IMG/VR virus record: IMGVR_UViG_3300005533_000009
Location: 17,269-81,268 of that record
DNA from: a virus
Direction: 5' to 3' (one strand)
DNA: 64,000 nt
The position numbers were made by a program, and so were the translations under genes. Shown piece after piece: positions 593-37,859 of the stretch (the stretch's first letter is position 1; every line of letters begins with the position of its first letter). The notes beneath the pieces are model-generated. The model searched no databases. It saw only the letters and a list, made by a program, of their open reading frames with translations, and was not told the DNA's origin.

Positions 593-665
593 ATCAAAAG
601 CCTAATTAACTTTTGATTGTTACACGGTGGGGAGTGCCGACACACTCCTCACTAACTTTTGTCGG
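593..665 (+). promoter_or_regulatory. Hairpin + SD-proximal pseudoknot element 1
   Basis: ATCAAAAG-cctaattaa-CTTTTGAT; GTGGGGAGTG-ccgaca-CACTCCTCAC; loop pairs with TGTCGG 660-665; ATG 674. Confidence 0.8.
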
Positions 666-673
666 AAAGAAAA

Positions 674-1183
674 ATGAATAAATTTTATTGTTATTTTTGG
701 CTACGTGAAGATGGTACCCCTTATTATGTGGGAAAGGGCACAAGACATCGAGCATACACAAAGTATTTTCATTGCTCTGATGTACCTAAAGACAAATCTA
801 GAATTATAATACAATATTATAATTCGGAAGAAGAGGCTTTAGAAGCAGAGGTATTCTTTATAGAATACTTTGGAAGATTAGATTTAAATACGGGTATATT
901 ACGAAATTTGACCAATGGAGGTGATAACCCTCCACGCTATAAAGGCAAGAATAAAAAAGCGCAATGTCATCCCGATAGAAAACATAAAGCCTTAGGATTA
1001 TGCCAACTCTGCTATAAAGACAAGTGGAGAAGAACAGCAGGAATACCTAAGAGAGAATTAAAAACACACTGCATTCATGGTCATCCTTTAGATGATCAAA
1101 ATACATACATATTAAATGGCGTAAGACGTTGTAAAAGATGTATGCATAGATACTATATCAACCGTAAGATGCGTGAGCAATAG
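674..1183 (+). CDS. GIY-YIG homing endonuclease-like protein with C-terminal HCxxGH...CxxC module
   Basis: FYCYFWLREDGTPYYVGKG and LRNLTNGG motifs; ATG 674 preferred over TTG 659. Confidence 0.8.
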   Translation: MNKFYCYFWLREDGTPYYVGKGTRHRAYTKYFHCSDVPKDKSRIIIQYYNSEEEALEAEVFFIEYFGRLDLNTGILRNLTNGGDNPPRYKGKNKKAQCHPDRKHKALGLCQLCYKDKWRRTAGIPKRELKTHCIHGHPLDDQNTYILNGVRRCKRCMHRYYINRKMREQ

Positions 1184-1196
1184 GACTCAGAAAAAG

Positions 1197-1664
1197 ATGG
1201 GTAGACCAAAAGGTTTGAGAAAAAACAAAGAAACAGGCGAATGGTATATGAAAAATACCACTAAGAAGAAAGCCAAAAATAAAAAGGTTGAAAAATCAAA
1301 CCTTTTGGACTCATTTTCAGAAAAGCTTATAGATAGACTAGAAACAGACCTCGTAATGCTGCGCCAAGATTATGAAAGACGCTTGCAAGATAAGGACGTA
1401 GTTATAGCCAATCTAAGAGAAGAAAAGCAACAGCTAATATCTAAAGTTGCTCTCTATGAATTAACCATTTTACCCCGCGCATCCGTACAGGGTGCCGAGG
1501 TGGTAGCGTATCAGAAGCCTACAAAGCCTACCTTTTCAGCTAAAGATTTTCTATCCAATCCTCCTATCATGACTAGATGGCAGCAATTGAATCAACAGCA
1601 TGAAGAGCAGATGAAAGCAGAAGATGAAGCGGAAAAGGCTGCTAAACAAGATTCTCAAGGATAA
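1197..1664 (+). CDS. Hypothetical coiled-coil protein
   Basis: ORF track 1173..1664; ATG 1197 is the likely start. Confidence 0.5.
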   Translation: MGRPKGLRKNKETGEWYMKNTTKKKAKNKKVEKSNLLDSFSEKLIDRLETDLVMLRQDYERRLQDKDVVIANLREEKQQLISKVALYELTILPRASVQGAEVVAYQKPTKPTFSAKDFLSNPPIMTRWQQLNQQHEEQMKAEDEAEKAAKQDSQG

Positions 1665-1667
1665 ATT

Positions 1668-2141
1668 ATGGCATTTCAAACAGCAGACAAGCAGAAAACA
1701 TTTGGTTCACGTTTTCGTCAGAAAAAGTATGATCAGCACCACCCAGCCGAAGAAGAAGGTTCAATGAAGAAAATGGCTCCTGACCATGAAAAGCAGGAGT
1801 CTCCAGAATTTGAAGCGGGTGAACAAGAAGGTCAAGTTGAAGGTTCCGATGAGATGAATCAAAATGAGGCACCTCAGTCAGTAGTAGGAGCCCATGGTAA
1901 AGCAACCAGCGTTCATGTAGCCCATGATCACGGTGCAAACCAACATCACGTAACCTCAACTCATGCCGATGGTCACGTACATAAGAGTTCACATGCATCA
2001 TCTAAGGATGCTCATCAAGCCGCAGGTATGCTAGGTGGAGCAGAAGAAAACCCTGCTGAGCAAAATCCAGAAGACGCTATGCTAGGCGGCGAACCAGAAG
2101 GCCCAGAGTCTGATGGTTTTAGAATGCCTAGATTGGCTTAA
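1668..2141 (+). CDS. Hypothetical acidic, His-rich protein
   Basis: ORF with AAGGA RBS; His cluster HVAHDHGANQHHVTSTH. Confidence 0.55.
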   Translation: MAFQTADKQKTFGSRFRQKKYDQHHPAEEEGSMKKMAPDHEKQESPEFEAGEQEGQVEGSDEMNQNEAPQSVVGAHGKATSVHVAHDHGANQHHVTSTHADGHVHKSSHASSKDAHQAAGMLGGAEENPAEQNPEDAMLGGEPEGPESDGFRMPRLA

Positions 2142-2308
2142 TGCCATTTGCATCGAAGGCGCAGCAAAGATATCTCCACGCTCATCCTGAAAAGGTAGGT
2201 GGAGAGTCTGCTCTTAAAGAATGGGATAGTGCCACCGATTTTTCCCATCTTCCAGAGAGAAAAGATAAAAAGTTTAGCTACGCCAAGAAAAAGAAAAAGG
2301 AAGAATAG
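2141..2308 (+). CDS. Small protein MPFASKAQQRYLHAH... (55 aa, absent from ORF track)
   Basis: TAATG overlap with upstream stop; own TAG stop abuts the next ATG at 2309. Confidence 0.7.
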   Translation: MPFASKAQQRYLHAHPEKVGGESALKEWDSATDFSHLPERKDKKFSYAKKKKKEE

Positions 2309-2515
2309 ATGGCTACTGGACTTGGACATAAGTGGGCACAAAAAGCAACAAAGAAGATGAAAGAAAAGGGAACGGAAGGTTCTCTTACTCGTGCTGCACA
2401 TTCAGCAGGGTACGATTCTCCTTTAGAGTATGCTCACCATATTAAGTCTCATAAAGACGAATATTCCGGTAAGATGCGTAAAAAGGCGAATTTCGCCGCG
2501 AACATTAACGCTTAA
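2309..2515 (+). CDS. Small basic hypothetical protein
   Basis: Coupled ORF ending RKKANFAANINA. Confidence 0.6.
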   Translation: MATGLGHKWAQKATKKMKEKGTEGSLTRAAHSAGYDSPLEYAHHIKSHKDEYSGKMRKKANFAANINA

Positions 2516-2520
2516 AGTTT

Positions 2521-2581
2521 GCTGTCAGCCTAATTAACTGATGGCGGGGAGTGCTTACACACTCCCCAAACTCTATGTAAG
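2521..2581 (+). promoter_or_regulatory. Hairpin + SD-proximal pseudoknot element 2
   Basis: GCTGTCAG-cctaattaa-CTGATGGC; GGGGAGTG-cttaca-CACTCCCC; loop pairs with TGTAAG 2576-2581, overlapping AAGGAG. Confidence 0.85.
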
Positions 2582-2591
2582 GAGAGTTGTA

Positions 2592-3044
2592 ATGGTTGTA
2601 GTAAAATGTAAGGGATGTGGTGTAAACATATACACATATCCCAGTGTAAACAGAGTTTATTGTAGTCGTGAATGTAAATCCCTAAATATTAATTGGGGAG
2701 GTGGTAGACCCATTGACCCAACGGCCAAAATTCACGATCCTAACTATCATACTTTTAGGCATTGGAAATTATCTTATAAATTATCTGAGGAAGATATTCT
2801 TAGAAAAATCCAAGAACAAAACGGCGTGTGTCCTATATGTAAACTTCCATTGGTTTTATTTTTGGATGGCAAAGTACAGATTTATATAGACCATGATCAT
2901 TCTTGTTGCCCTAAAAGTAAAACTTGTGGAAAATGTGTTAGAGGCATAATACACATAGGATGCAATATAGGTTTAGGAGCTTTTAAAGACAATGCTACTA
3001 TATGTAGAAACGCCGCAAAATACTTGGAAAATTTTAATAAATAA
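2592..3044 (+). CDS. Endonuclease VII-like (His-Me) homing endonuclease
   Basis: QNGVCPIC...IDHDH...VRGIIHIGCNIGLG; ATG 2592 follows AGGAG. Confidence 0.8.
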   Translation: MVVVKCKGCGVNIYTYPSVNRVYCSRECKSLNINWGGGRPIDPTAKIHDPNYHTFRHWKLSYKLSEEDILRKIQEQNGVCPICKLPLVLFLDGKVQIYIDHDHSCCPKSKTCGKCVRGIIHIGCNIGLGAFKDNATICRNAAKYLENFNK

Positions 3045-3058
3045 TTTAAGGAAGGTAC

Positions 3059-5704
3059 ATGCCCGAAGAATTTAACACAGATGTGCCTTCCAATGCCACA
3101 GATGTTGCTTCTCCTATACAACCAGAAAAACCAGAAGACAGTCCTATTGGAGTTTATGCTTCATTTGACTATAGCCCTGAACCTTTCGCAGAGTTGTCAG
3201 AAGAAGCTAAGAATGCGTTGGTGCAGCTAGATAACGTCGCTACAAAGACAGACGTGGCTGCACGCAGACTTGAAGTAGAACAGGCATGGGAAGCTATACA
3301 TTTTGATCGTGGATACCAACACCTGTTCCGAGGGAAACAGGGAGGGTGGATATTACCGGGAAATAACACCGGATATGGTGCCCAACAACAGCTAGCGAAT
3401 AATGGTATTTATGAAACTAACGTTTACGGACCAAAGGGTGACATTATTGTTGCAGCTTTGTCGCGTGAAGTACCTAAGATAGAATTTTTCCCTGATAACC
3501 CTAATTATGGCCCAGATATCATTGCTGCTGAAGAAGCAGACAATTTTAAAATGATATGGGCAAGAAACAATAATCTACATCAGTTATTGGTAGATGTTTC
3601 TAGAATTTTTTGGAATGAAGACCGTGTATTGCTGTGGACTCGATATGAGTTGAACGGTCAAAAGTACGGGTTTGAAGATGATGATGCAAACGCACCTACA
3701 GTGCCTCAGGATCATCTCACTCCTCCGTCTGCTACACCTACTGGACAAGAAGAACTTGACGAGATTTTAAATCAAACTGAATCATTAGTACAACCAGATA
3801 TCAGTGTAGAAGAGAAGTTAGGGCAAGATGCAGATCAAGCATTAAAGCCTACTCCGGTAATTAACAAAAAACCGCTAGGACGAGAAGTAACGACTGCATA
3901 CGGCAAGTTGGATCATAAAGTCCCTATTGCTGTAGATAATCTATGTGATATGCAGTTTGTTCAGATTTTTGAAGATATTGACTTTGTAATTGCAAGAGCA
4001 AGATACCCTTGGATTGCAGATAAGATTAAGCCATCAGGTAAAAATCAATCTGAATCTGAATTAGATAGAATTGCGCGTGAAAACACTAGACAGGCTGTTT
4101 TAGGAGCCTATGTTACTGGTGATTCATTTGCGAGACATGTCACTGTTACTCATACTTGGTTCAGACCTTCTATGTTTAATGATGACAGCATTGAAGACCA
4201 TGTAAGAGCAGAATTGTTGGAGAATTTCCCAAATGGTTGCTTACTTGTTAAAGTAGGTTCTGAATATGCCTTTTCTAGAAACGAAAGCATGGACGACCAT
4301 ATAGCCATCGCTCATCCTTTCGCTGGCAAAGGCCAAAACAGAAGAGCCATGGGAACTGCTCTTATCTCTGTACAAAAGAGAATTAATGATTGGGTAGATT
4401 TGATGGATGATTTCTTCAAGCGTACAGTGCCTAAGAAATGGTATAACGCAGAAGCTTTCGATATGGAAGCTATGAAGAAGTCGCCTAATACGCCGGGAAC
4501 CTCTGGGCCATTTATGGTTCAGCCGGGACTAACATCTCGTGATCAATACATGTTTGTGGAAGAAACTCCACAACCACAAAATGCTCTTGGTGATTTTATT
4601 AAGTGGTTTATTACCTCTGTTTCAGAAGAAATTTCTGGAGCACTTCCTTCTTTGTTTGGTGCTGCTACTGGTGAAGAAACTGTAGGAAATGCAGTTATTC
4701 AGCGTGATCAGGCTCTACAGAGAGTAGGGTGCCCTTGGAATGCGGTTCAGGATTTGTTTGCAGAAGCTGCTAGACAAGCGGTTAAATGCGCGGCTGAATG
4801 CCGTGACGGTAAGAGTTTTTCTCAGTTGGTAACAACTGGCCCCGATGGGCAAAACAAAAACATTACTGTTAACACTGCCAACCTATCAAAAGGTAAGGTT
4901 CTGTGTTATGCCGAATCTAACCCTGCATTCCCTGAATCATGGCAGCAGAGAGAGCGCAAGCTTCTTGAAATGATAGATACAGCTATGCAACAGCCTGCAC
5001 TAGCTCAATGGTTATTCTCAACAGAGAACCTACCAGTATTGGCTGACGGTATCAGAATGAAAGACTTCAAGATACCGGGAGCAATTTCTGTTACTAAGCA
5101 GAAGAATGAATTTGAAATCCTTTTGCGTAGTGGACCTACAGATAACCCTCAAAAGTTAATGGCCCAGCAACAGATGGAACAAGCTCAACAAGGCTATCAG
5201 CAAGCACAACAAGCTGCGGCTGTGAGTGGTCAACCACTACCTCAAGAAATGCAAGCTGCTCCACAAGTGATGCAGCAATTGCAACAGGCTATTGAAGCTC
5301 TACCTCCTCAGGTAAGCACAGTGCCTATTGCACAAGATGAAAGTGAAAATCATGCGGTTGAAGCCGATGTATGCTTTAGCTGGATGAATAGTAATGAAGG
5401 TCAGAAGTTTAAATTTGGTACACCAGAACAGAAGGAAGCTTACGAAAACGTACACCTTCACTGGCAAGAGCATTTGGCTATGGCAAAGAAGATTGCCGCA
5501 GCTAACGCTAAACCAGAAACTAAACCACCTTCTGAAAGCATAAGCGCCCCAGTAGACAAGATGCCAACTAACGTGGCAATTCAATTGTTGAAGAAAATGA
5601 ATGTAGATGCTACTCCAGAAGATTTTGCTGAGCATCAAAAACAACAATTAAATGATAAAATTGCTGCTAAAAGCATTCCTGATGCTATGAGAGATAACGG
5701 GTAA
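3059..5704 (+). CDS. Portal protein
   Basis: 881 aa between terminase and scaffold/capsid; Q-rich C-terminal region; call rests on synteny and general features. Confidence 0.7.
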   Translation: MPEEFNTDVPSNATDVASPIQPEKPEDSPIGVYASFDYSPEPFAELSEEAKNALVQLDNVATKTDVAARRLEVEQAWEAIHFDRGYQHLFRGKQGGWILPGNNTGYGAQQQLANNGIYETNVYGPKGDIIVAALSREVPKIEFFPDNPNYGPDIIAAEEADNFKMIWARNNNLHQLLVDVSRIFWNEDRVLLWTRYELNGQKYGFEDDDANAPTVPQDHLTPPSATPTGQEELDEILNQTESLVQPDISVEEKLGQDADQALKPTPVINKKPLGREVTTAYGKLDHKVPIAVDNLCDMQFVQIFEDIDFVIARARYPWIADKIKPSGKNQSESELDRIARENTRQAVLGAYVTGDSFARHVTVTHTWFRPSMFNDDSIEDHVRAELLENFPNGCLLVKVGSEYAFSRNESMDDHIAIAHPFAGKGQNRRAMGTALISVQKRINDWVDLMDDFFKRTVPKKWYNAEAFDMEAMKKSPNTPGTSGPFMVQPGLTSRDQYMFVEETPQPQNALGDFIKWFITSVSEEISGALPSLFGAATGEETVGNAVIQRDQALQRVGCPWNAVQDLFAEAARQAVKCAAECRDGKSFSQLVTTGPDGQNKNITVNTANLSKGKVLCYAESNPAFPESWQQRERKLLEMIDTAMQQPALAQWLFSTENLPVLADGIRMKDFKIPGAISVTKQKNEFEILLRSGPTDNPQKLMAQQQMEQAQQGYQQAQQAAAVSGQPLPQEMQAAPQVMQQLQQAIEALPPQVSTVPIAQDESENHAVEADVCFSWMNSNEGQKFKFGTPEQKEAYENVHLHWQEHLAMAKKIAAANAKPETKPPSESISAPVDKMPTNVAIQLLKKMNVDATPEDFAEHQKQQLNDKIAAKSIPDAMRDNG

Positions 5705-5709
5705 AATAT

Positions 5710-5778
5710 TTCAAAGGGTTGCTCCTTTGAACAGGGAAGAGGGTTGCCTAGAACAATCCTCTTTCCGACTTTTCTAGG
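5710..5778 (+). promoter_or_regulatory. Hairpin + SD-proximal pseudoknot element 3
   Basis: TTCAAAGGG-ttgc-TCCTTTGAA; GGGAAGAGGGTTG-cctagaa-CAATCCTCTTTCC; loop pairs with TTCTAGG 5772-5778. Confidence 0.85.
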
Positions 5779-5789
5779 AAGTTATATAA

Positions 5790-6311
5790 ATGGATAAAAG
5801 AATAAAAGCAAAGAGTTTAGTAGGAAAAATATTTGGTAAACTAACGGTTGTATCTAGAGCACCAAATACTCCTAAAAGTCCACAGTGGAATTGTGTATGT
5901 ACCTGTGGAAATAAAGTAGTTGTACCAACACAAAGATTGATAAAAGGTACGTCTAAGAGTTGTGGATGTTTGAGAGAAGTAGATAATGCAGCTTTTACAT
6001 TACTCTTTCGTACTTATAAGTTAAATGCAAGAAAGAAAGACTTAGAATTTAAATTAACAGAAGAGCAATTTAGAAATATTACAAGCTCTAATTGTTATTA
6101 TACAGGAAGAAAGCCCACAAAAACTCTAACAACAGTTAGTGGAGATATTTACAAATATAATGGTATAGATCGTCTAGATAACACACAGGGATATGTTTTA
6201 CATAATTGTGTCCCATGTTGTACAGAGATTAACTATGCCAAACGCACTCTTCCTTTCAAGCAATTTATTGCTTTATGTGCAGAAGTTACAAAACAGCACA
6301 AGCAATTATAA
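5790..6311 (+). CDS. HNH-type homing endonuclease
   Basis: GKIFGKLTV..WNCVCTCG..SKSCGC N-terminus; GIDRLDNTQGYVLHNCVPCC nuclease motif. Confidence 0.8.
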   Translation: MDKRIKAKSLVGKIFGKLTVVSRAPNTPKSPQWNCVCTCGNKVVVPTQRLIKGTSKSCGCLREVDNAAFTLLFRTYKLNARKKDLEFKLTEEQFRNITSSNCYYTGRKPTKTLTTVSGDIYKYNGIDRLDNTQGYVLHNCVPCCTEINYAKRTLPFKQFIALCAEVTKQHKQL

Positions 6312-6333
6312 AGACTCAAGGAGATTCCTTTAA

Positions 6334-7791
6334 ATGGCAGCAGATGTTTTAGATTTTGCTGGACTAGAAGATTCCGCTTCAAGCTCTACAACCGTAGACG
6401 CTAGCGTTGATACAACTTCTACTACGGATACAACTAACGATTCAGACAATGTAGATTCTAGTGTAGATAGTACAGATACTACTGCAACCGACTCAGATAA
6501 AACTACTACGGAAGGTTCTCCTAAGGGAGAAACTAAAGAAGCATCTTCTACAGAAACGGATGATGACTTACCGGGGAATGCTAAAACTCCCGCCGAAGTA
6601 CGTAAGGCATTGAAAGCTTTCCGTGACGCTAATCCAAAAGCAAACGCAGCTTTGGTAAAGCTTATCCATGGAAACTATGAGCGATGGGAAGCTGCTAAGC
6701 AGTACTTTCCAAGTGTTCAGGCCATGGAAGAAGCCAAAGCATTTATTGATTTGGTTGGTGGTCAAGAAGGTTATGATAAACTTCAGAATATTGTTAATAG
6801 TGTGACAGAAAGCGACCGTCTACTTTATGAAGGTGGTCAGAGTCATACTCAATTAATTAACAACATTTATGAAGACATGAAGAGTGAGGGTAAGACTGCT
6901 CAGTTTATTCAGCTAGCAAACCCTATTCTCGATAAGATTAAAGAAGTAGACCCAAAAGGTTATGTTCAAGCATTAACTCCTCACCAAGTATCATTTTTGG
7001 AGCAGGCAAACCTTCCCGGTGTATTGAAGGATTTGTCAGACGCTATTGCTAAAGGTGATGAAGGTTCAATTAAGACTGCAAAGGCTCTTGTTGAAGATAT
7101 TCAGGCGTGGTTTGGTGATCTAAAGAATTCTGTTCAAAAACAGAAAAGCACCCAGTCTGATCCTGAAAGATTGAAGCTTCTAGAAGAACGTGCTCAATTT
7201 GCAAAAGAAAAAGAAGAATTTACTAGTAAGCAAACCAAACAGTTTCAAGAAGCTGTTGGTAAGGAAGTAGATACTACCAGTGCGAAGGCTCTTGGATCAC
7301 ACCTAGGCAACCTTCGTAAGACTCCTTATTTCAAGGCGTTTAAGACTGAAAATCTTCGTCCTCTTGCTAACACTATTCTTTACAACTTGAGACAAGAGTT
7401 GGAAAAAGACAATGCTTACAGAACTCAGATGAAAGCATTGTGGGGAGAAAAGACTCCTAACAAGGAAAAGATTTTAAACTACCACCGTACAAAAGTTGAA
7501 AGTATCGCAGAACGTATTGTTCGTGAAACAGCTAACTCTATGTACCCAGATCATGCGAAGGGTGGTAGTGCAGCGGGACGTATTGCTGCAAAGAATGATA
7601 AGCAAGAAGCTCAAGCAGTTGTAGATAAGGCAGCGGCTTCTGCTGGACAACCACAATATGTGCCTGTAAAGCCTAAGAATCTCAACAGACAAATGGACCC
7701 TAAGGGATATCTGGAAATTGCTGGAAAAGGATATATCCCCAACGGTCGAGGCGGCTGGAAATTTATCACTTGGCGGAAGCCGATGGTGTAA
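6334..7791 (+). CDS. Putative capsid scaffold/assembly protein
   Basis: Acidic low-complexity N-terminus, helical body, between portal and capsid genes. Confidence 0.55.
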   Translation: MAADVLDFAGLEDSASSSTTVDASVDTTSTTDTTNDSDNVDSSVDSTDTTATDSDKTTTEGSPKGETKEASSTETDDDLPGNAKTPAEVRKALKAFRDANPKANAALVKLIHGNYERWEAAKQYFPSVQAMEEAKAFIDLVGGQEGYDKLQNIVNSVTESDRLLYEGGQSHTQLINNIYEDMKSEGKTAQFIQLANPILDKIKEVDPKGYVQALTPHQVSFLEQANLPGVLKDLSDAIAKGDEGSIKTAKALVEDIQAWFGDLKNSVQKQKSTQSDPERLKLLEERAQFAKEKEEFTSKQTKQFQEAVGKEVDTTSAKALGSHLGNLRKTPYFKAFKTENLRPLANTILYNLRQELEKDNAYRTQMKALWGEKTPNKEKILNYHRTKVESIAERIVRETANSMYPDHAKGGSAAGRIAAKNDKQEAQAVVDKAAASAGQPQYVPVKPKNLNRQMDPKGYLEIAGKGYIPNGRGGWKFITWRKPMV

Positions 7792-7796
7792 GATAT

Positions 7797-7871
7797 TTTC
7801 ACTCTTAGCGGGGTGAAATTAAGTAATAGGGGGTTAGCCTCGAACTAGCCCCCTATGAAACTCTTTCGAGG
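7797..7871 (+). promoter_or_regulatory. Hairpin + SD-proximal pseudoknot element 4
   Basis: TTTCACTC-ttagcg-GGGTGAAA; ATAGGGGGTTAG-cctcgaa-CTAGCCCCCTAT; loop pairs with TTCGAGG 7865-7871, overlapping GAGGAG. Confidence 0.85.
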
Positions 7872-7876
7872 AGAGT

Positions 7877-8383
7877 ATGCCTTACAAAGACTCAAATAAA
7901 AATAGAGAATGTAGATTAGCTTGGCAGAAAAGAAATAGGACAAAGGTAAACGCTTATAAAAGAAAGCGTAGAGCCGAAAATTCTGAAGTTAGAGCCAAGG
8001 AATCAAGTTATACAATAGAATACCAACGTAAAAAGTATAAAGAGAATTCAGAGTTTAGACTTAAAGAGTCTTTTAGACACCATAAAAAGCGTCAAGATGA
8101 AAAGGTAGAAGCTCTAGTTCAATATGGTAAAAATAAAAGCTTGCAGTGTTGCTGGGAAAACTGCAATGTAGACGATCCAGACATGCTGTCATTGGATCAC
8201 GTCAATAATGATGGAGCAATAGATAGAGAAATCAGAGGTACTGGAATTAATCTTTACAGAACACTAAAGAAAGAAGGTTATCCAGAAGGATTTCAAACTT
8301 TATGCTTCAATCACCAGATGAAGAAAGAAATGACGCGACTCAGAAACAAATACAAAGATAGCATTAAGGAGAGAATTTTATGA
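7877..8383 (+). CDS. HNH-like homing endonuclease
   Basis: Basic N-terminus; CCWENC...LSLDHVNNDG...FQTLCFNH; paralog of 37869..38315. Confidence 0.75.
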   Translation: MPYKDSNKNRECRLAWQKRNRTKVNAYKRKRRAENSEVRAKESSYTIEYQRKKYKENSEFRLKESFRHHKKRQDEKVEALVQYGKNKSLQCCWENCNVDDPDMLSLDHVNNDGAIDREIRGTGINLYRTLKKEGYPEGFQTLCFNHQMKKEMTRLRNKYKDSIKERIL

Positions 8384-8577
8384 GTGATCCAGTAACAAAT
8401 CGTGCAGGAAAGCCAGTTACCACTGGTGATCAAGTCACAGTAGTAGGAACCGTTGCTTCAGTACCAGGTAGCGGTCCCACTGGTTCTGTTGTAGTAACTC
8501 TTGCCACCACCGGAACTAACGTAACGGTTGAGGGACAAGATGTGTACAACACAACTAACAGCTTAGCTAACGGATAA
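8380..8577 (+). CDS. Small beta-rich protein, paralog of 46239 and 55409
   Basis: GKPVTTGDQVTVVGTV repeat unit. Confidence 0.6.
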   Translation: MSDPVTNRAGKPVTTGDQVTVVGTVASVPGSGPTGSVVVTLATTGTNVTVEGQDVYNTTNSLANG

Positions 8578-9864: not shown

Positions 9865-10229
9865 ATGGCTGCATTACTAGAAGCGGCTGTGGAAGCTGTC
9901 GAACTTGATGCGTTTGCAAAAGAGATTCCCGACCTAGTTTTCCATGGCACTACTGCTTACACTCTTTTCAAGAATGAAGCAACTAAGATTCCTGTAAGCA
10001 ACCAGTCTAACGCAGGCGGCGTTCAGCGTCCATCATTCCGTGTTCCTTTCCGTGTACAAAGCGGTGCGGCAATTTCGCAGGGAACTGGTAACGCTGATTC
10101 AATGCTGCGTGGTTCTGGTTCACAGTGGGCATCATTTGCGCTTGCCCCTGTATATTTGTTCAACGTGTGTGAAATCTCATGGTTGGCACAGGCATCAACT
10201 GACAGCAAGCAAAAGGGCTTGTTCGCTGT
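9865..10229 (+). CDS. Major capsid protein, exon 1
   Basis: Joins in frame with exon 2: ...GLFAV|KAQEMKNSLD; spliced product 447 aa. Confidence 0.8.
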
Positions 10230-11020
10230 TAATACTTTAGCAGCGGCTGCGTAGTAATACATGGCGTAGAAATAATCTTGCTATATCGGGGAAAACCTGT
10301 TATCCTAAAGATGGAAATAGACAATCCCGAGGGAAGATAGAATGACAAAGCAAAGTAAGTTTTCATACCTTGCAGGTTTCATGGATGGCGAAGGAACATT
10401 CGCTATCGTCAAAACCTTCTCGGTTCAAAGAAAACCGGATGGAAGTAAGAAGCGTTACGTGGTATATAAACTGAATATCTCAGTAAGTAATACCAACAAA
10501 GAAGTCATGGAATGGATAGCCTTGAATTTTGGAGGCAAGCCACTGCCGGGAAGCAATGAAGGTCGAAAGCCTCATTATAAAACTCGGTATGCATGGCACG
10601 TAACACACAGAGACAAACAAAAGAGTTTTATTCTTGGTTTGTTACCTTACCTAGTTGCGAAAAAGGAACAAGCAAAAATAGCACTACAATTCATTGAGAC
10701 TTATTCGAATGAGATTGGGGTGCCGCTTGATTCTGCGGTGGTAGAGAAAAGAGACCAGTTGAGAAAGCAAATGCAAAAACTCAACGGTACACTACCTTCC
10801 GATTCTAAACCCGTAGAGACTACACGCAGGACTCCAAAGTGTACAAAATGTAATCATCTAGTTTCAGAGCATACTTCCACAGGATGTAATGTAAAAGTAT
10901 GTGATGCTGCTGGAGATTTAGATTTTTGTCCTTGTGGATGATGATATAGTCCGAACTGCATAGTGATATGCAGAGTGTGGCAGAAATGTCATACCTAGCT
11001 TTTAGCTAGTAACATATTTG
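10230..11020 (+). mobile_element. Group I intron 1 in capsid gene (791 nt, carries LAGLIDADG ORF)
   Basis: P1 CGCTGT/GCAGCG ending in U-G; P3 TCTTGC/GCAGGA; P7 GACTA/TAGTC; three P9-region hairpins; terminal G 11020; P10 CTTTA/TAAAG. Confidence 0.9.
10342..10941 (+). CDS. Intron-encoded LAGLIDADG homing endonuclease
   Basis: YLAGFMDGEG motif; LPYLVAKKEQA. Confidence 0.9.
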   Translation: MTKQSKFSYLAGFMDGEGTFAIVKTFSVQRKPDGSKKRYVVYKLNISVSNTNKEVMEWIALNFGGKPLPGSNEGRKPHYKTRYAWHVTHRDKQKSFILGLLPYLVAKKEQAKIALQFIETYSNEIGVPLDSAVVEKRDQLRKQMQKLNGTLPSDSKPVETTRRTPKCTKCNHLVSEHTSTGCNVKVCDAAGDLDFCPCG

Positions 11021-11914: not shown

Positions 11915-12114
11915 GAACGTTACGTTAGGACATGTATAAATTTCTTCTGATTGACTCGAACCCTGAAATGGCAACGAGGCGGAACCCAATAGGGACCGTG
12001 AGAGACTAAGCGAAGAAACGTCTAAATGACGATGCAATAGTCCGATCACATGGGAATAAAACCATGTGAGTGCAACAGAAATGATTGCACCTCATACACT
12101 GAGTAACAACAATG
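11915..12114 (+). ncRNA. Group I intron 2 in capsid gene (200 nt, no ORF)
   Basis: P1 ACATGTT/GACATGT ending in U-G; P3 TTTCTTC/GAAGAAA; P7 GACTA/TAGTC; P8 CGTC/GACG; P9 hairpins; terminal G 12114. Confidence 0.9.
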
Positions 12115-12199
12115 CGCGTATAATTGCTGCTTCAATTTGGCAAACGCTGCTCCAAGAGCAGGTCTGTATATCCAGAATGCAGCAGTTCCGACCATCTGA
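12115..12199 (+). CDS. Major capsid protein, exon 3
   Basis: Splice gives ...LTSHM-F-AYNCCFNLANAAPRAGLYIQNAAVPTI-stop. Confidence 0.8.
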
Positions 12200-12234: not shown

Positions 12235-12301
12235 CTTTGAGCCTCATGAACTCAAAGCGTGGAGGGGATAGCCTAATCTATCCCCTTCTCACTCTATTAG
12301 G
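12235..12301 (+). promoter_or_regulatory. Hairpin + SD-proximal pseudoknot element 5
   Basis: CTTTGAG-cctcatgaa-CTCAAAG; GGAGGGGATAG-cctaat-CTATCCCCTTC; loop pairs with ATTAGG 12296-12301. Confidence 0.85.
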
Positions 12302-12309
12302 AGAGAAAA

Positions 12310-12828
12310 TTGGTACAAAAAAGAAGAAGTACAAAACCTTATGAAGGCTACCCTTGGCATGAACAACATAAGGAAGAATTAAAAGAAAAAGCTCGTAAAT
12401 ATAGAGCGGAAAACCCAGAATACTTAAAGCGCAATGCTGAAAAAGCAAGACGTGATCGTTTAGAAAACCCAGAATTTTATCGTGCCAGAGAGTTTGCACG
12501 AGAAATGAAAAAATATGGTGTAACTGTAGAATGGTACAGAGATAAACTTATTGCTCAAAATGGACTTTGTGCTATTTGTCAGCATTTAAGTCATCATCAT
12601 GGTACTATTCAAAGATTACAGGTAGATCATAATCATCAGTGTTGTGATGTTAAAACCAAAAGTTGTGGAGAATGCGTGCGCGGTCTTTTATGCGCCGATT
12701 GTAATATTAATCTTAGCTATTTGGAAAAAATTTTGAAAGACATATACGGTCTGTATGAAGCCCGATGGGACTCATGGACCTCTAAGGCATTAAAATATTT
12801 GACTCAGTACGAACTTACTGCCAACTAA
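12310..12828 (+). CDS. Endonuclease VII-like homing endonuclease
   Basis: QNGLCAIC...LQVDHNH...VRGLLCADCN. Confidence 0.85.
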   Translation: MVQKRRSTKPYEGYPWHEQHKEELKEKARKYRAENPEYLKRNAEKARRDRLENPEFYRAREFAREMKKYGVTVEWYRDKLIAQNGLCAICQHLSHHHGTIQRLQVDHNHQCCDVKTKSCGECVRGLLCADCNINLSYLEKILKDIYGLYEARWDSWTSKALKYLTQYELTAN

Positions 12829-15758: not shown

Positions 15759-15843
15759 ACAAGCTTGGCATTTGAAAATCATAGCCAAGTAAGCGTTCTG
15801 AGTCCGTTGAACGGTTCTGATCGTAAGATGCCATGTAACATTT

Positions 15844-15891: not shown

Positions 15892-15909
15892 CTATTTTAT
15901 GGAGAGCGC

Positions 15910-29630: not shown

Positions 29631-30368
29631 TTGCGTACTTTGATAGCAGTAGTGTCTGCTCGTCATCGCAGTGAATGGAGAAAAGCTATAAGAGAAACTT
29701 GGTTGCCATTAGTACCGATAACCAAGGCTGAAGTTAAGTTCTTTGTAGGCTCTGGGGATTCTCCCATAGAACCTGATGTTGTAGAACTTGATTGTGATGA
29801 TTCTTACCAAGGGCTTCCAGAGAAGATACGGGAGATAACCCGATGGGCGCTTAAGAATCAGTTTGACTATATGCTCAAATGTGATGATGACGTTATATTA
29901 AGGCCGGAAGGCATTCTTTACAGTGGTTACGAAAACCACCTTTACTCAGGCAAGACTAACAGATATCCCACCACAGAACAGCCCTTTCCTGTAACCGTGG
30001 GATTCAACTATTGGCTACACAAAGATGCCATGAAGTTAGTGTCTGAGCATGAATTACCTCCCGAGTTAGGGCCGGGAGTGAAAGACAACGATGATGAGAA
30101 GTGGGTAGCAGGAATAATGCACGACCATGGCATTAAGCTACATCACGACCATCGTTATGAGATTTATGGTGGGGAATTACCTGAAAAGGAACCCACTATA
30201 TTGTACCGTCCTTTACGTCCACCGAAAGTCAATTCTGAACAAAATCGGGAAGCGTTTAGCTGGACAATTTTTTTGGAAGCAAACAGCGGTAATGGAATAC
30301 CTTTAGATATAAAGATAAAAGAATTCTACAAGGTGTTTAATAAACTTTATAATAATCCCCAAGCTTAG
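29631..30368 (+). CDS. GT31/Fringe-like glycosyltransferase
   Basis: AIRETW...DSYQGLPEK...FDYMLKCDDDV; paralog of 19432. Confidence 0.75.
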   Translation: MRTLIAVVSARHRSEWRKAIRETWLPLVPITKAEVKFFVGSGDSPIEPDVVELDCDDSYQGLPEKIREITRWALKNQFDYMLKCDDDVILRPEGILYSGYENHLYSGKTNRYPTTEQPFPVTVGFNYWLHKDAMKLVSEHELPPELGPGVKDNDDEKWVAGIMHDHGIKLHHDHRYEIYGGELPEKEPTILYRPLRPPKVNSEQNREAFSWTIFLEANSGNGIPLDIKIKEFYKVFNKLYNNPQA

Positions 30369-30424
30369 CGGCTTGGTGTTAGGGAGAGGTAGTGCTGACA
30401 CATTATCTCTCCCGCCTTTGTCAG
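30359..30424 (+). promoter_or_regulatory. Hairpin + SD-proximal pseudoknot element 6
   Basis: CCAAGC-ttagcg-GCTTGG (upstream TAG stop lies in the loop); GGGAGAGGTAGTG-ctgaca-CATTATCTCTCCC; loop pairs with TGTCAG 30419-30424. Confidence 0.85.
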
Positions 30425-30433
30425 AAGGAACAT

Positions 30434-30910
30434 ATGAATCAAAATTACAATAAAACCCATTGTATTAGAAAGCATGAATTTACTGAAGAGAATACTTACG
30501 TATTTCCCAACGGTAAGCGTGCATGTAAAACTTGTAGGTTACTGTGGTATAAAAAGCACAGAGACGGTAACAAGGAAAAGCGTGCTATAAGCAAAAAGAA
30601 ATGGGATAATAACAATAAAACCCACACAAGAGAGTATCAACGAACAATAGAAAGAAAAAGAGTAGGTTGGACTAAAGAACTGTGGGATAGCACATTAAAA
30701 GAACAGAAAAGACGATGTGCTATTTGTAAACAATATCTAGAGTTGGAAGGTAAGGGTAAGAGAAGCGCAACAGCGGATCATATCCATGTCAATCCTCCGA
30801 TTCCTAGAGGTATTTTGTGTAGCCATTGTAATATGGGGTTGGGACTGTTTAAAGACAATCCCGCCATTTTAATAGAGGCAGCAAAATACGTCGAAAGACA
30901 CAAACCGTAA
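30434..30910 (+). CDS. Endonuclease VII-like homing endonuclease
   Basis: THCIRKHEFTEENTY module; CAIC...ADHIH...RGILCSHCNMGLG. Confidence 0.85.
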   Translation: MNQNYNKTHCIRKHEFTEENTYVFPNGKRACKTCRLLWYKKHRDGNKEKRAISKKKWDNNNKTHTREYQRTIERKRVGWTKELWDSTLKEQKRRCAICKQYLELEGKGKRSATADHIHVNPPIPRGILCSHCNMGLGLFKDNPAILIEAAKYVERHKP

Positions 30911-31358: not shown

Positions 31359-31375
31359 GTTATAGAAAACAAAGA

Positions 31376-31443
31376 ACTTAGGAGTAATTACCCTGAGTAG
31401 AGTTGGGCGGTACTCATAATGCCGCCCTTCTCGCCTTTATGAG
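31376..31443 (+). promoter_or_regulatory. Hairpin + SD-proximal pseudoknot element 7
   Basis: ACTTAGG-agtaattac-CCTGAGT; GGGCGGTA-ctcataa-TGCCGCCC; loop pairs with TTATGAG 31437-31443. Confidence 0.8.
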
Positions 31444-31452
31444 AGGAATTTT

Positions 31453-31938
31453 ATGGGAAGAACAAGACAAACACATTGCAAGAGAGGGCATGAATTTACG
31501 GAAGAGAATACTTATGTAGCTCCTCCTAATAAACAGCATCCCTATGGATTAAAGCAATGTAGAATATGTCGTACATTAAGAAATCAGAAACGAAGAGAAG
31601 ACCCTGTTGAGCGTGCTAAGATTAATGCTCGTAGCATTCAGTGGGCTTTAGATAATCCTGAAATAGTAAGAAAGCGCAGTAGAGAACATACGTGGAAAGA
31701 ATCAGGTTGGTTACCTGAGATGATTGAAGACAAGTTAAAAGAGCAAGATAATAAATGCGCTATCTGTCTTAAGAAGTTTACTGAAGAAGATGGTCCTCAT
31801 GCCGACCATGCTCATACTACACCTCCTAAACCAAGAGGTTTATTATGTGGAAAATGCAATAGAGGTATAGGCATGTTTAACGACAACCCTTTGCTTTTGC
31901 AATGGGCATCTCAATACATCTTGAAATACTCAAGCTAG
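31453..31938 (+). CDS. Endonuclease VII-like homing endonuclease
   Basis: THCKRGHEFTEENTY; QDNKCAIC...HADHAH...RGLLCGKCNRGIG. Confidence 0.85.
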   Translation: MGRTRQTHCKRGHEFTEENTYVAPPNKQHPYGLKQCRICRTLRNQKRREDPVERAKINARSIQWALDNPEIVRKRSREHTWKESGWLPEMIEDKLKEQDNKCAICLKKFTEEDGPHADHAHTTPPKPRGLLCGKCNRGIGMFNDNPLLLQWASQYILKYSS

Positions 31939-34900: not shown

Positions 34901-37065
34901 TATCAGCAGGTACTAGACAGGCTGTTTGCTTCTTTATAACTGATACCGGATATAACACCGCTCCTAATGTACCAGTAACTTTTGACGTAGCTTCGGGAAG
35001 TAACTCGATTGTAGTTAGCAATCTTCCTATAGGACCGCCTAACGTAATTGCCAGAGGTATCGCCATTACAGAGGCAGGGCAAAACGGTGTTCCGGGTGCT
35101 AATTTTTATGTAATTGAAAACGATGTAACTTCTACGATTGGTAATTCGGTGGTTACATTGGCAACATCCACAATTGTACGAGACAACACTACTCAAAGCG
35201 CAACCTTCTCATTCACTGATGCTGTTCTTCTTGAATCGAGAGAGATTGACATACAGGGTGACAACTTATTCAACTTGATTGAACTGGGAAGTTCAGCATG
35301 GTGTGTACCATATAAGAGCAGAATGTTCTACGGTATGCAATTGAATAAAGTACAGGGGTTCACAGCTATGGCATTTGATAGCTACGTAACTCCCGGTCAA
35401 CCTGCTGGTTGGAGTTCTCCCGGCATTGGTGGAACCCTAGTAACAAGTACTGTTACAGGTTTTGCTTATTCTATTAGTAACACTACAGGATCAACCATAG
35501 CTACGGCTGGATTAATTCAGCAGGGGGCTTATCAAGACTATTACGGAGTGCCGATTATAGAGCAGAATACTCTGTATTCAGTGCGAGTAGCGGCTAGAGC
35601 ACCATCAGGAAGTGCGATTGGGACTCTAGTTATAGACTTGTTTGATGGCTCAACGGTGTATGGTTCGTTCACTGTACCATTTTCACAAATGTCAACAATT
35701 ACGCAGGTATTCTCTGGTAGCTTGTTGACCAATCCATTTACTAGTGCGGTTAACCAAGGGGGTGCTCAAAGCACTTCTGGGTCTGTGCCAACAACCCTTG
35801 TTCTAAGAGTATATGCACAGAATCTGGGTAACGGAGCAAACGTAGAAATAGATAGAGTGGAAGTTTATCCGACCGAAACTCCATTTATTGAAGCTCAGGT
35901 TTATGGTTCTTATATTAACCTGCCCGAGTCTATAGACGCAAGTTCTAACGGAGGTATCATTGATACTTCGACCGAAAACAAGCAGCCTGTAACTGGGGCG
36001 TTTGTTATGCATGATCTGTTGTTCTTACTCAAGACTAAGAGCATGTATTCAGTGGAAGACAATGTAAACTCTGAACCCGGAGGTTGGGGATTAAAAGAAG
36101 TAAGTAATAGAGTGGGTTCTATTGGAATTCACGCTTATGATGTTGGTGAAGAGTGGGCGGTTATGGCTTGCCGAGAAGGTATCTTCGGATTCAATGGTGG
36201 ACAACCACAAAAGATGATGCAAGAAATCTGGCAAGTTTGGGAAGCTATTAATTGGGATGCTGGACATACTATCGTGTTAAGAAATGATATTATTAACAAG
36301 CGTATTCTATGTGCTATCCCTCTACCTACCGGAACCAACCCAACTACAGGTGTTAAAACTAAGTCAGTAGCTTGGTTACCTAATGCTACATATAATCCTA
36401 CACCAACCACACCAAACGTTATGCTGTGCTTAAACTATCAAGGTCTAGGCACATTCGAAGAGTTGGTAAGTGGAGCAGAAATGCACACTACCATGTTTGG
36501 TACGCTGGCTGCTGTAGATATGCGTAGAAAATGGACAATTTGGCAAATTCCATCACCTTATATGGACTTTGTAACAAGAAAGAATGGAATCGACGCACCG
36601 TTGTTTATTTGCAATGGTATTGATTCTTCTAAGGTTTATGAGCTAAGTACAGATCAACTCAGTGACGATGGAGTTGCAATCAATAGCTCATACACAACAT
36701 ACGGGTTCGTTAATGCTGAAAAAGCAGCTACAGTACCTATATTTGGATATCATACAAAGAGATACACTATTTTGCAGATTCTGGCTAGTGGAGCAGGAAC
36801 GGCTCAATTGCGTATTCTTCCAAATACGTTGGATGCTCGTTATCCATACACTGTACCTGTTGGTATCACACTAACTAGCCCAGAGCAAGATGATTTCTTT
36901 AGACCTATTAACGTAAAAGGAAACCGTGTATTCGTAGAGACATCTACTAATGCGGTCGGCGCTTGGTTTAGCCAAAGCAAAATAATGTTAACTGGTAAAG
37001 CAGATCATTGGTCAAGTCTCAACCCTACGGGTGGTGGGAACATTGGCATTACATCGTCTTCATAA
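31990..37065 (+). CDS. Large tail protein (nozzle/tail tubular B-like, with long Ser/Thr-rich insertions)
   Basis: 1691 aa; N-terminal PEDLPEGASPRCQDVDF..TRPG; precedes GNAT-like and ejection-like genes as in podoviral gene order. Confidence 0.55.
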   Translation: MGHNLQQLGTAALDMMGGMITLAKPEDLPEGASPRCQDVDFDIGSVHTRPGLLSVYTYATTFNITSVVITYGTATVTYTNSAGTQPVVNEQLLLQGFTGALIFLNGQTVVVESVTATSFTFAITSQDVSLTVVSGATAISLTGQFAGPNVPTLATDISGGSAPWVSPNSILGNTSYASSATGSTVTAPGVPGAAANVDSVRPWTSPSNVFSTSLFATVSLSAGQTSTAILANGVGYAIPSNASVKGISLAFKASTTGVAGSGSINIQLAQNGSPIGTAINVPISNTPNTYTQGSSAYQWGTNLTPDIVNGTAFGILLDAQQGTGSGAFSVNSLTVTVYYTTASSSDALQAQQFVFVIPSTSGISGFGVSFQAYSTTNTSVTVQMLKGGLPVGTAKTQVLTTVPTIYSLGASNDLWGNTWLFSDVNSNQFGIQITASGTGTTFINDVDMLVYITPALVNFNWIKTYEQDDGDINTLALDASGIIWIEDVINNEGALSVALTGILPNSYAKSSTMFDREYICFSNEFIGSDRPRVFDGTSFLPLSMYAPGGQLSVQASSSGTTSNLNLTSYAVTGGVATFQYTGTEPVAGTVYVLTNIIPSAAGSTTDTLINNKPFIILSSGLSPTQFEISVPSHANLGSTPLVSTATAVLAQNFSISSIIQSYRFVSPPPPPTNAGSGSYGTPGTAEGPNPKGKWQQLLQSAGPGSSQPGSVVTVYYANASVGGVGIPGDDNLVEQFNQGIPTYVYITGTGTYNGTWQVTSVGIGIPPGGAGERYFFTFNFTSSTHFVTNSTTGMTYQRSLAVVNTTTGIADLQAGSQVTITGETPAGWNATWTVVQPLNSGSLNITNAAVSGDGSTITFQYNVATGVAPKASEIVKVTNVLVNSGTELNGTYVIQTSTNTSPGSFTVIAPAGATAGESVTQTNAQAVVYGTQFLIDPGSTTVGTTTNPIYGSGTTGTLNVIGATPSGGTQISAGTRQAVCFFITDTGYNTAPNVPVTFDVASGSNSIVVSNLPIGPPNVIARGIAITEAGQNGVPGANFYVIENDVTSTIGNSVVTLATSTIVRDNTTQSATFSFTDAVLLESREIDIQGDNLFNLIELGSSAWCVPYKSRMFYGMQLNKVQGFTAMAFDSYVTPGQPAGWSSPGIGGTLVTSTVTGFAYSISNTTGSTIATAGLIQQGAYQDYYGVPIIEQNTLYSVRVAARAPSGSAIGTLVIDLFDGSTVYGSFTVPFSQMSTITQVFSGSLLTNPFTSAVNQGGAQSTSGSVPTTLVLRVYAQNLGNGANVEIDRVEVYPTETPFIEAQVYGSYINLPESIDASSNGGIIDTSTENKQPVTGAFVMHDLLFLLKTKSMYSVEDNVNSEPGGWGLKEVSNRVGSIGIHAYDVGEEWAVMACREGIFGFNGGQPQKMMQEIWQVWEAINWDAGHTIVLRNDIINKRILCAIPLPTGTNPTTGVKTKSVAWLPNATYNPTPTTPNVMLCLNYQGLGTFEELVSGAEMHTTMFGTLAAVDMRRKWTIWQIPSPYMDFVTRKNGIDAPLFICNGIDSSKVYELSTDQLSDDGVAINSSYTTYGFVNAEKAATVPIFGYHTKRYTILQILASGAGTAQLRILPNTLDARYPYTVPVGITLTSPEQDDFFRPINVKGNRVFVETSTNAVGAWFSQSKIMLTGKADHWSSLNPTGGGNIGITSSS

Positions 37066-37073
37066 ACCCCAAA

Positions 37074-37108
37074 GGAAGGGAGCCTAAAAAGCTCCCTTTC
37101 TATTTTAG
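37074..37108 (+). promoter_or_regulatory. Single hairpin with loop complementary to SD-proximal sequence
   Basis: GGAAGGGAGC-ctaaaaa-GCTCCCTTTC; loop can pair with TTTTAG 37103-37108 before GAGAG. Confidence 0.5.
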
Positions 37109-37116
37109 GAGAGTAT

Positions 37117-37755
37117 ATGGCTCAGCAGCACACAAATTTTGAAGCAGGTTCAGAACTTACATACCTATCTCAAAAAGACGCTTATTTAGGAAAGTTCTTG
37201 CGTAGATTAGTAGACGCTATGAATACATCGGCTCAAAATGCGGGAGTTTCGGCTGTTGGTAAGTTTCCTACCCCTCCTCCAGTAGATACAATAGATGTAC
37301 AAGGAACTTTCAGTTCCAACTCGAACACAATTACAACACCTTCAGAAATACTGCACTGGACGTTGACTCATAATCAGCAGATTCACAAGGGTATAAAATA
37401 TTTTACTGAAGTAGATACTGATCCAAGTTTCAGTAACCCTCATGTTATAGATCATGGGACTTCAAGATCAGGATTTTTAACACTGCCTACCATGGATAAT
37501 GATGGTGCAACACAGAATTATTACATGAGAAGTTATGCACAATATCCCGGCAGTGATCCTTCAGAAAAGACAATTTTAGGTGGTACTAACAATCCTACTG
37601 CCATCGTTATGACAGGTACAAGCAAAACTTCCCTGTTAACTTCTAAGGGCAGCGGTACTGCAAAAGCAGATGGTCAGCAAGGTGGTCAAGGTTTAGGTAA
37701 AGTTCTTACTCGTCCTGCAACGGGGCCGAAAAGATCGGTGGTACAGCATTCATGA
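37117..37755 (+). CDS. Hypothetical tail-associated protein
   Basis: Context only. Confidence 0.45.
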   Translation: MAQQHTNFEAGSELTYLSQKDAYLGKFLRRLVDAMNTSAQNAGVSAVGKFPTPPPVDTIDVQGTFSSNSNTITTPSEILHWTLTHNQQIHKGIKYFTEVDTDPSFSNPHVIDHGTSRSGFLTLPTMDNDGATQNYYMRSYAQYPGSDPSEKTILGGTNNPTAIVMTGTSKTSLLTSKGSGTAKADGQQGGQGLGKVLTRPATGPKRSVVQHS

Positions 37756-37787
37756 GTGCGTTAGTGCGAGACTATAACCACAAATAT

Positions 37788-37859
37788 TCTAAGGCTTAGC
37801 GGCTTTAGATTAGAGGGGGAGGAATGCCATCTACATTCCTCTTTCTCGCCTTTAGATGG
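37788..37859 (+). promoter_or_regulatory. Hairpin + SD-proximal pseudoknot element 8
   Basis: TCTAAGGC-ttagcg-GCTTTAGA; GAGGGGGAGGAATG-ccatcta-CATTCCTCTTTCTC; loop pairs with TAGATGG 37853-37859. Confidence 0.85.

Follow-up and report, generated by a model that had tools for sequence, protein, structure and literature searches.

A covarying kissing-hairpin leader that probably buries the ribosome-binding site of mobile homing endonuclease genes in uncultured phages

How the toxic homing endonuclease genes (HEGs) that phages carry as passengers are restrained is largely unexplored outside the T4 model, and the question arises directly in the 64,000-nucleotide stretch of DNA analysed here (the window), which corresponds to bases 17269-81268 of the 81-kb IMG/VR virus record IMGVR_UViG_3300005533_000009 (G000). 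This uncultured soil phage has about 106 genes of which 18, about a sixth, are HEG-like, an unusually high load comprising GIY-YIG, three HNH types and LAGLIDADG, and many of these genes are placed between virion genes. Eight of the HEGs in the window follow an RNA element of shared architecture, a real and widespread RNA family that is absent from Rfam, and we consider it probable that this element is the 5' messenger RNA (mRNA) leader of a mobile homing endonuclease cassette which buries the ribosome-binding site and so keeps translation of the nuclease low.

Each of the eight sites consists of a hairpin (H1), a second hairpin (H2) with a purine-rich/pyrimidine-rich stem of 8-14 bp and a loop of 6-7 nt, a linker of 5-9 nt and an exact complement of the H2 loop (the partner), with the start codon 5-11 nt past a purine-rich Shine-Dalgarno (SD) sequence (Table 1). 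An earlier first-pass annotation, made from the letters alone, had described a hairpin plus pseudoknot with perfect loop/partner pairing at these eight places; read base for base, that pairing is present at all eight. A generic descriptor (stem of at least 7 bp with G-U allowed, loop of 6-7 nt, and a full-length exact complement of that loop at a distance of 0-15 nt), run on both strands of the window, agrees, returning exactly the eight leaders and two unrelated matches at 63882(+) and 46848(-), and no further copies were found by scanning the 17 kb of the record that lie upstream of the window.

What the first-pass annotation did not see is the third hairpin (H3) and the extension of H2, so that its hairpin and knot stand as described while the fold as a whole is not a plain hairpin plus H-type knot: it is a kissing-hairpin or three-helix pseudoknot. 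H3 has 3-5 bp (CTTT/AAAG, ACTCT/AGAGT, CCTT/AAGG and the like); the partner makes up its loop, and its 3' strand is the remainder of the SD. The SD begins inside the partner, of which its opening G or GG forms the 3' end, and is completed by the H3 3' strand (GGAGG, GGAGAG, GAAGG); it lies 5-13 nt before the start codon across the family. A run of 10-12 contiguous nt with GGAGG-like sequence is thereby paired, half of it to the H2 loop and half to the H3 5' strand. In known kissing complexes 6-7 nt is the loop size that allows every loop base to pair.

Is this pairing maintained by selection? We collected copies of the leader from G000, its syntenic relative G001, three other phages of about 100 kb and many IMG/VR contigs, the last fetched around homologs of the EndoVII-like and HNH-like proteins, and the same architecture was found upstream of the matched genes at the fetched loci. 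After filtering with the descriptor the collection comprised 69 non-redundant copies; their loops are of 49 different sequences, and every loop has its exact partner. As MAFFT alignments (A1, A4, A5) set loops and partners out of register, we used a seed of ten cleanly aligned sequences (A6) and a model-made alignment (A7). The covariance model built from the seed (R1) had H2 and H3 annotated and the knot not encoded, and it recovers all eight window sites. When the knot was added to the alignment of 29 copies made with this model, 94% of cells pair compared with 70% in shuffles and 38-54% in slid controls, and none of 500 shuffles reached any of five covariation measures. Eighteen of 19 pairs have changes on both sides (H2 8/8, knot 6/7, H3 4/4), such that all three helices covary, and the first pair of the knot is an invariant C-G. 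The 93% pairing obtained for the knot in A7 is an underestimate, since 6-nt loops are slightly out of register there.

Because many copies had been chosen by a descriptor that demands the knot, knot-blind tests were also run. A reversed-sequence control of a relaxed descriptor is uninformative, reversal keeping inverted repeats, and we therefore used blind tests based on the model and on a pattern. Applied to the three other phage genomes of about 100 kb, the model gave 17 new matches, 15 of which have a perfect loop/partner of 6-7 nt, and 14 of these 15 lie before genes of GIY-YIG, MUG113, HNH or EndoVII type. The exact H2 consensus with its loop left free matched 27 non-redundant places in IMG/VR; a perfect 7-nt partner stands 8-12 nt past the stem in 16, where chance would give about 3e-4 each. 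Fifteen of these 16 precede clear HEG homologs, and the gene behind the sixteenth (L212) has no BLAST match and just a HEG-like N-terminus. The same H2 pattern gave 99 matches in 596 Gb of cellular genomes, with a partner in only two; in one of these the leader is complete and lies on a 1.3-kb contig from the bin of an acidobacterial metagenome-assembled genome.

Across many contigs and no fewer than five large phage genomes, the leader is found with six or more unrelated nuclease families. In G000 itself all eight copies stand before HEGs (hypergeometric P = 1.5e-7, taking about 106 genes and 18 HEG-like ones), and the genes behind them fall into four groups: GIY-YIG-like, Endonuclease_7/HNH, a paralogous HNH-like pair without Pfam match and a third HNH type. 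The same scans with descriptor and model found no leader at the HEGs overlapping or directly adjoining the gene upstream of them (20115, 22963, 26000, 46607, 53940 and 62384(-)), and it is likewise absent from the intron-borne HEG at 10342, the three LAGLIDADG genes and the three minus-strand HEGs of this genome. The different families downstream and the bare overlapping or abutting genes are both as the first-pass annotation had them. G001 (103.6 kb), whose 881-aa protein is 65% identical to its window counterpart, also has eight leaders, every loop different, which precede a GIY-YIG gene, several HNH or EndoVII genes, an HNH-AP2 gene with an in-frame stop and, once, just an 11-codon remnant. 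Loop uniqueness within a genome is not strict, as one contig (L188) repeats a loop.

Two other arrangements were seen among the fetched loci and genomes. At L184 (G006:55482-56400) H1 and H2 occur with no partner and are followed by several hundred bases free of open reading frames (ORFs), which seem highly structured. At L189, L191, L193, L201, L209 and L210, in other IMG/VR phages, there is another conserved leader, in which the same H2 stem carries a fixed loop CCTGTTA and is directly followed by GGAAAGGAG and the start codon, with no partner for the loop.

The comparison of G000 with G001 shows that leader and HEG are jointly present or jointly absent at orthologous junctions, and that the cassette junctions partly differ between the two phages. 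Empty sites miss everything from the upstream stop to a few bases past the nuclease stop, that is the AT-rich stretch, H1, H2, H3 and the gene (filled G001 45337-46015 against empty window 15758/15759; filled window 7792-8379 against G001 38818-38838). Cassette 8 is inserted in the first codons of the next, GNAT-like gene (window 37752-37796 and 38261-38716): the 15 codons left at its front, MSALVRDY..., run into the TAG of the H1 loop, and the frame is picked up again as ...IIRDYVHE... within the 3' end of the nuclease gene. The leader thus lies inside the inserted segment and is part of the mobile unit.

At one junction (window 5706-5792 and G001rc 36786-36869) the two phages carry different nuclease families behind what is nevertheless the most alike leader pair in the 8x8 comparison, which hints that nuclease ORFs may be exchanged behind a retained leader. 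Nucleases of different catalytic families also start with Met-Pro-Tyr-Lys or Met-Pro-Lys-Gly after their leaders (window 7877; L091, L104, L190, L192), suggesting that leader and N-terminal module may travel together by recombination.

Does the element act as RNA or as DNA? Every copy is co-oriented with its gene, and in the stem layers left unconstrained by the filter G-U far exceeds A-C (11 to 2 in layers 7-8, 20 to 2 in layer 11), which argues that it acts as sense-strand RNA. A signal at the DNA level, whether a nuclease target, a recombination site or a cruciform, would fit the position of the element at the left boundary of the cassette and the 6-nt palindrome often held by the long H1 loops, yet the sequences covary instead of being conserved, G-U is tolerated on one strand only, orientation and spacing are bound to the SD and start codon and unrelated nucleases are served by the same element, all of which make such a signal extremely unlikely. 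The first-pass annotation had proposed a portable module acting as RNA at the ribosome-binding site, matching no motif known to it and predicted to be enriched before endonuclease genes in other genomes; the filled and empty sites, the covariation, the blind searches and the Rfam comparison all bear this out, with the correction to the fold given above. Its further suggestions, that the module makes room for toxic nucleases in a strongly expressed late operon and might be switched by a protein, a ligand or an upstream ribosome, are more conjectural. Its alternative, an RNA partner or mobility signal for the nucleases, finds no support, one leader serving unrelated enzymes.

The palindromes just mentioned (TAATTA, TCATGA, TGATCA, TTATAA) occur in 16 of about 27 long H1 loops across the family and are self-complementary, resembling dimerisation loops. 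In the window they are found for example at 601-609, 2529-2537, 12242-12250 and 31383-31391, and the UAGC/UUGC tetraloop class of H1 lacks such self-complementarity.

With regard to stability, the H2 core has a mean energy of about -12.5 kcal/mol, the loop/partner helix taken as a free duplex a mean of -7 kcal/mol, and minimum-energy folds contain H1, H2 and H3 with z-scores of -3.3 to -3.9. In the mechanism that we favour, a very stable G-rich H2 would present its loop, and the entire loop would form Watson-Crick pairs with a 6-7 nt segment whose 3' end is the initial G or GG of the SD. The SD continues with another 3-5 nt, for which the 3-5 nt immediately preceding the partner would be the complementary strand, making H3. 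The ribosome-binding site would then be buried in a kissing-hairpin or pseudoknot stack, binding of the 30S subunit would be strongly reduced and the toxic nuclease, although encoded among virion genes, would be translated at a trickle, a low-translation setting that would move with the cassette whatever its landing site. Repression, and its strength, we infer from this anatomy.

Several observations weigh against translational masking as a full account of the element. One of the 15 model-found matches with a partner precedes a 331-aa ORF of no known family and without a nuclease signature, and a ninth, reduced variant without H1 (37073-37119) precedes a conserved 212-aa gene which is not a nuclease (ATG 37117); at the junction matching this variant G001 has a leader plus GIY-YIG cassette. 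H3 on its own is marginal, with a mean of about -0.4 kcal/mol. Since its complementarity is selected all the same, H3 presumably gains stability, as it would in kissing complexes, from stacking against the loop/partner helix. No copy has the start codon or the A-rich spacer paired, such that some initiation, even by a standby mechanism, is possible. Finally, a hand estimate indicates that in long-stem copies the full-length H2 and the loop/partner helix could not form together.

The open start region is also the starting point for a reading of opposite sign, in which the fold would aid translation by keeping this region open or by serving as a standby platform, averting a worse trap of the H2 3' strand on the SD. 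The SD is indeed complementary to that strand (consensus CACCTCCC), and activating structures are known in T4 genes 25 and 38 (PMC3014915). However, it is the SD which is the paired segment in every copy, H2 folds before the SD is made so that its 3' strand is already locked, and HEGs elsewhere are repressed and not boosted, which leaves an aid to translation highly improbable. An explanation of H2 as a mimic of SD and anti-SD (consensus GGGAGGTG/CACCTCCC) was considered separately and rejected as not defining, the SD-like core being missing in about a third of copies.

Of G-rich hairpins standing directly before non-nuclease genes the window has two, with CCTAAAAA-type loops, at 37073-37116 and 45288-45315, the latter without a complement between loop and SD.

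H1 is present in 63 of the 69 copies, right behind the upstream stop and after an AU-rich stretch, and has either a UAGC/UUGC tetraloop closed by a wobble pair or a loop of 7-9 nt. This position would suit a role in mRNA metabolism or insulation, with the element as a processing site, a protective 3' hairpin for the mRNA of the upstream virion gene or a weak terminator and the loop/partner pairing secondary. RNase E processing beside T4 HEGs is on record (PMC2988022), and a textbook intrinsic terminator at 47825-47850 (GGGGAGC-TTCG-GCTCCCC, then a T-run) has a G-rich stem of the H2 kind. H2 itself was tried as a terminator and rejected, since only two of the eight copies score terminator-like and six lack a T-run; 49 covarying loop/partner pairs at the SD would moreover be left unexplained. 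As the whole explanation this is very unlikely, and H1 may have such a role alongside the masking of the ribosome-binding site.

The geometry of H2 raises the question of whether the masked state is the only one. H2 has a constant G-rich core of 8 bp which is often extended, with a weak point at layers 9-10 (UU/UU, CU, tandem G-U) and pairing again at layer 11 in 87% of copies, the lower stem being missing or partial in about half. The contiguous stem varies from 6 to 16 bp, yet the distance from loop end to partner is 17-19 nt in 57 of the 69 copies, nearly constant because the extensions consume linker (correlation of stem with linker length -0.86; one copy combines a 16-bp stem with a 4-nt linker). 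We estimated by hand that stacking H2 core, knot and H3 coaxially (~18 bp) would stretch the 6-7 nt connector almost taut and would require the lower H2 to open. A fixed distance despite a variable stem suggests either a strained fixed fold or two alternative states.

On the second option the leader would be a switch, in which an extended H2 leaves the SD free (ON), and opening of the lower stem allows the H2 core, loop/partner helix and H3 to stack (OFF). What selects the state could be the 5' end of the transcript, a processing event in the spacer between H1 and H2, a ribosome that terminates at the stops of H1 or spacer, or a factor acting in trans. Besides the constant distance and the hinge-like weak layers, the covariation of an H3 that is unstable alone would be in keeping with this, as would the stop codons, often provided to incoming frames by the H1 loop or the H1 3' strand and present also in the spacer; at sites 6 and 8 the upstream ORFs terminate within the H1 loop. 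In the G003/L046 lineage a sigma-70-type promoter stands in place of H1, ending 5-12 nt before H2, so that the nuclease mRNA there begins with the H2-H3 core, which works without H1. Against a switch, the steric argument is a hand estimate, the lower stem is lacking or partial in so many copies, and a ribosome halting in H1 would fall short of H2. A conserved internal promoter was not found in the leaders, sigma-70-like scans staying at or below shuffle level with a single weak match in the window at 30325-30353; the phage may use other promoter types. A ligand is unlikely because the 49 loops are unconserved in sequence, which makes a ligand pocket implausible. We regard switching as doubtful, and as unlikely a self-contained bistable device in which a hinge after the 8-bp core would pick between an open ribosome-binding site and the taut 18-bp coaxial stack, set by events at H1 or spacer, while palindromic H1 loops would pair leaders in trans. 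Such a device, if real, would be a new class of ligand-free, context-sensing translational switch on mobile nuclease genes.

Table 1. Positions of the leaders, the reduced variant and the downstream nuclease genes in the window
Feature	Position	Strand	Parts and remarks
Leader 1	593..676	+	H1 593-617 (loop CCTAATTAA); H2 626-653, loop CCGACA 637-642; H3 5' strand 656-659; partner TGTCGG 660-665; H3 3' strand/SD 666-669; ATG 674
Leader 2	2521..2594	+	H1 2521-2545; H2 2546-2567, loop CTTACA 2554-2559; partner TGTAAG 2576-2581 within H3 ACTCT/AGAGT; ATG 2592
Leader 3	5710..5792	+	H1 5710-5731 (UUGC loop); H2 5734-5766, loop CCTAGAA 5747-5753; partner TTCTAGG 5772-5778; H3 3' strand 5779-5783; ATG 5790
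Leader 4	7797..7879	+	H1 7797-7818 (UAGC loop); H2 7826-7856, loop CCTCGAA 7838-7844; partner TTCGAGG 7865-7871; H3 ACTCT/AGAGT; ATG 7877
Leader 5	12235..12312	+	H1 12235-12257; H2 12261-12288, loop CCTAAT 12272-12277; partner ATTAGG 12296-12301; H3 CTCT/AGAG; TTG start 12310
Leader 6	30359..30436	+	H1 30359-30376 (UAGC loop, its TAG closes the upstream ORF); H2 30382-30413, loop CTGACA 30395-30400; partner TGTCAG 30419-30424; H3 CCTT/AAGG; ATG 30434
Leader 7	31376..31455	+	H1 31376-31398; H2 31405-31427, loop CTCATAA 31413-31419, GAG/CUC lower extension; partner TTATGAG 31437-31443; H3 CCT/AGG; ATG 31453
Leader 8	37788..37871	+	H1 37788-37809 (UAGC loop, its TAG closes the 15-codon remnant ORF begun at 37752); H2 37813-37847, loop CCATCTA 37827-37833; partner TAGATGG 37853-37859; H3 CCTT/AAGG; ATG 37869
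Ninth, reduced variant without H1	37073..37119	+	10-bp hairpin, loop starts CCTAAAA; TTTTAGG 37103-37109 overlaps SD
GIY-YIG-like homing endonuclease gene after leader 1	674..1183	+	Paralogs 20115 and 26000 without leader
Endonuclease_7/HNH gene after leader 2	2592..3044	+	
HNH-type endonuclease gene after leader 3	5790..6311	+	PHROG 374/1035/3118
HNH-like gene after leader 4	7877..8383	+	DH..N..NH motif, no Pfam match; stop overlaps ATG of next gene
Endonuclease_7/HNH gene after leader 5	12310..12828	+	TTG start
Endonuclease_7/HNH gene after leader 6	30434..30910	+	
Endonuclease_7/HNH gene after leader 7	31453..31938	+	
HNH-like gene after leader 8	37869..38315	+	Paralog of 7877

As to the phage itself, most large ORFs of G000 were assigned to no PHROG family, and 12 kb compared by megablast with GenBank phages gave no match. 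Its sequence is present in 12 DNA runs from soil and mine metagenomes, with no RNA runs among those listed, and a comparison of four DNA runs over window positions 500-8500 gave few single-nucleotide polymorphisms only and no cassette-free contig.

Elsewhere in the window a capsid-like gene seems to be split (9865-12199), its ORFs 9865-10254 and 11034-11939 being 95% and 82% identical to ORFs of G001, which shows the same layout. Between them lie a LAGLIDADG ORF (10342-10941) and a sub-threshold Rfam match to a group I intron at 10718-10973 (37.3 bits, E 1.3e-6). An intergenic stretch of 150 nt is kept in both phages (window 15759-15909, G001rc 46015-46170; CAAGCTTGG...GCGTTCTGAGTC...) and may be a structured RNA, with no match to Rfam at gathering scores.

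How does the leader compare with known systems? Searching the leaders against the Rfam 15 families with cmscan gave no match at gathering scores or at E <= 5. The int-alpA RNA (RF02996) resembles the leader in being a structured RNA of putative function tied to mobile or phage genes, and differs in that its model (threshold 35.8 bits) had no match at E <= 10 in five genomes holding 33 leaders (G000 8, G001 8, G003 4, G006 8, G007 5). The PeSL cassettes of T4-like phages are likewise short conserved regulatory modules at indel boundaries which may mediate module shuffling, and they consist of an early promoter and a terminator-like stem-loop, with no knot at the ribosome-binding site and no specific link to nucleases (PMC2839356, PMC4122927). 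The leaders too lie at indel boundaries; a sigma-70-type promoter was seen with them in the G003/L046 lineage only. This compact, strongly covarying RNA family is common to GIY-YIG, HNH, EndoVII-like and MUG113-type genes in many uncultured phages and could be used as a marker in metagenomes for mobile nuclease cassettes and their boundaries.

The Guanidine-II riboswitch (mini-ykkC) also has neighbouring GC-rich 5'-leader hairpins with kissing loops and an expression platform controlling the SD, and it is an ON switch whose conserved ACGR loops form the ligand pocket with two loop pairs only (PMC9300104). The phage leader in contrast has unconserved loops in 49 variants, a pairing of 6-7 nt, no ACGR tetraloops and no Rfam match. 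Were it switchable, a ligand-free kissing-loop switch would join the known repertoire.

The closest functional likeness is to the simple hairpins that sequester the ribosome-binding sites of the T-even HEGs I-TevI, I-TevII, I-TevIII and segB and of Aeh1 mobE (PMC2988022, PMC3014915). These too are cis-acting RNAs immediately 5' of a phage HEG ORF which pair with the SD, presumably to limit translation of the nuclease. They are however single and lineage-specific, with the ribosome-binding site held in the stem and relief given by a late promoter inside the hairpin, whereas the phage leader pairs one part of the SD with the loop of a separate stable hairpin and the other part within the 3-5 bp stem of H3, an internal promoter was not found by sigma-70-like scans and one conserved family serves at least six nuclease families in many phages. 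Masking the ribosome-binding site of a selfish nuclease is therefore already known, and what appears to be new is a three-helix loop-to-SD design conserved across nuclease families and phages, which we found neither in Rfam 15 nor in the literature, where searches on homing endonucleases with pseudoknot, kissing or covariation returned the T-even hairpin work and unrelated papers only.

Kissing loops of 6-7 nt that are complementary over their full length are known from ColE1 RNA I/RNA II and HIV TAR-TAR*. The leader is like these complexes in that two loops of 6-7 nt are fully complementary, the H2 loop being the reverse complement of the H3 loop in all 69 filtered copies and in 15 of the 17 found by the model. 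Those complexes are intermolecular or engineered, whereas in the leader both hairpins lie on one mRNA 0-8 nt apart, one of the stems is limited to 3-5 bp and it is the SD that is targeted. The leader offers a defined and easily testable case of loop-loop masking of a ribosome site and a natural design for portable, low-leak translational insulation.

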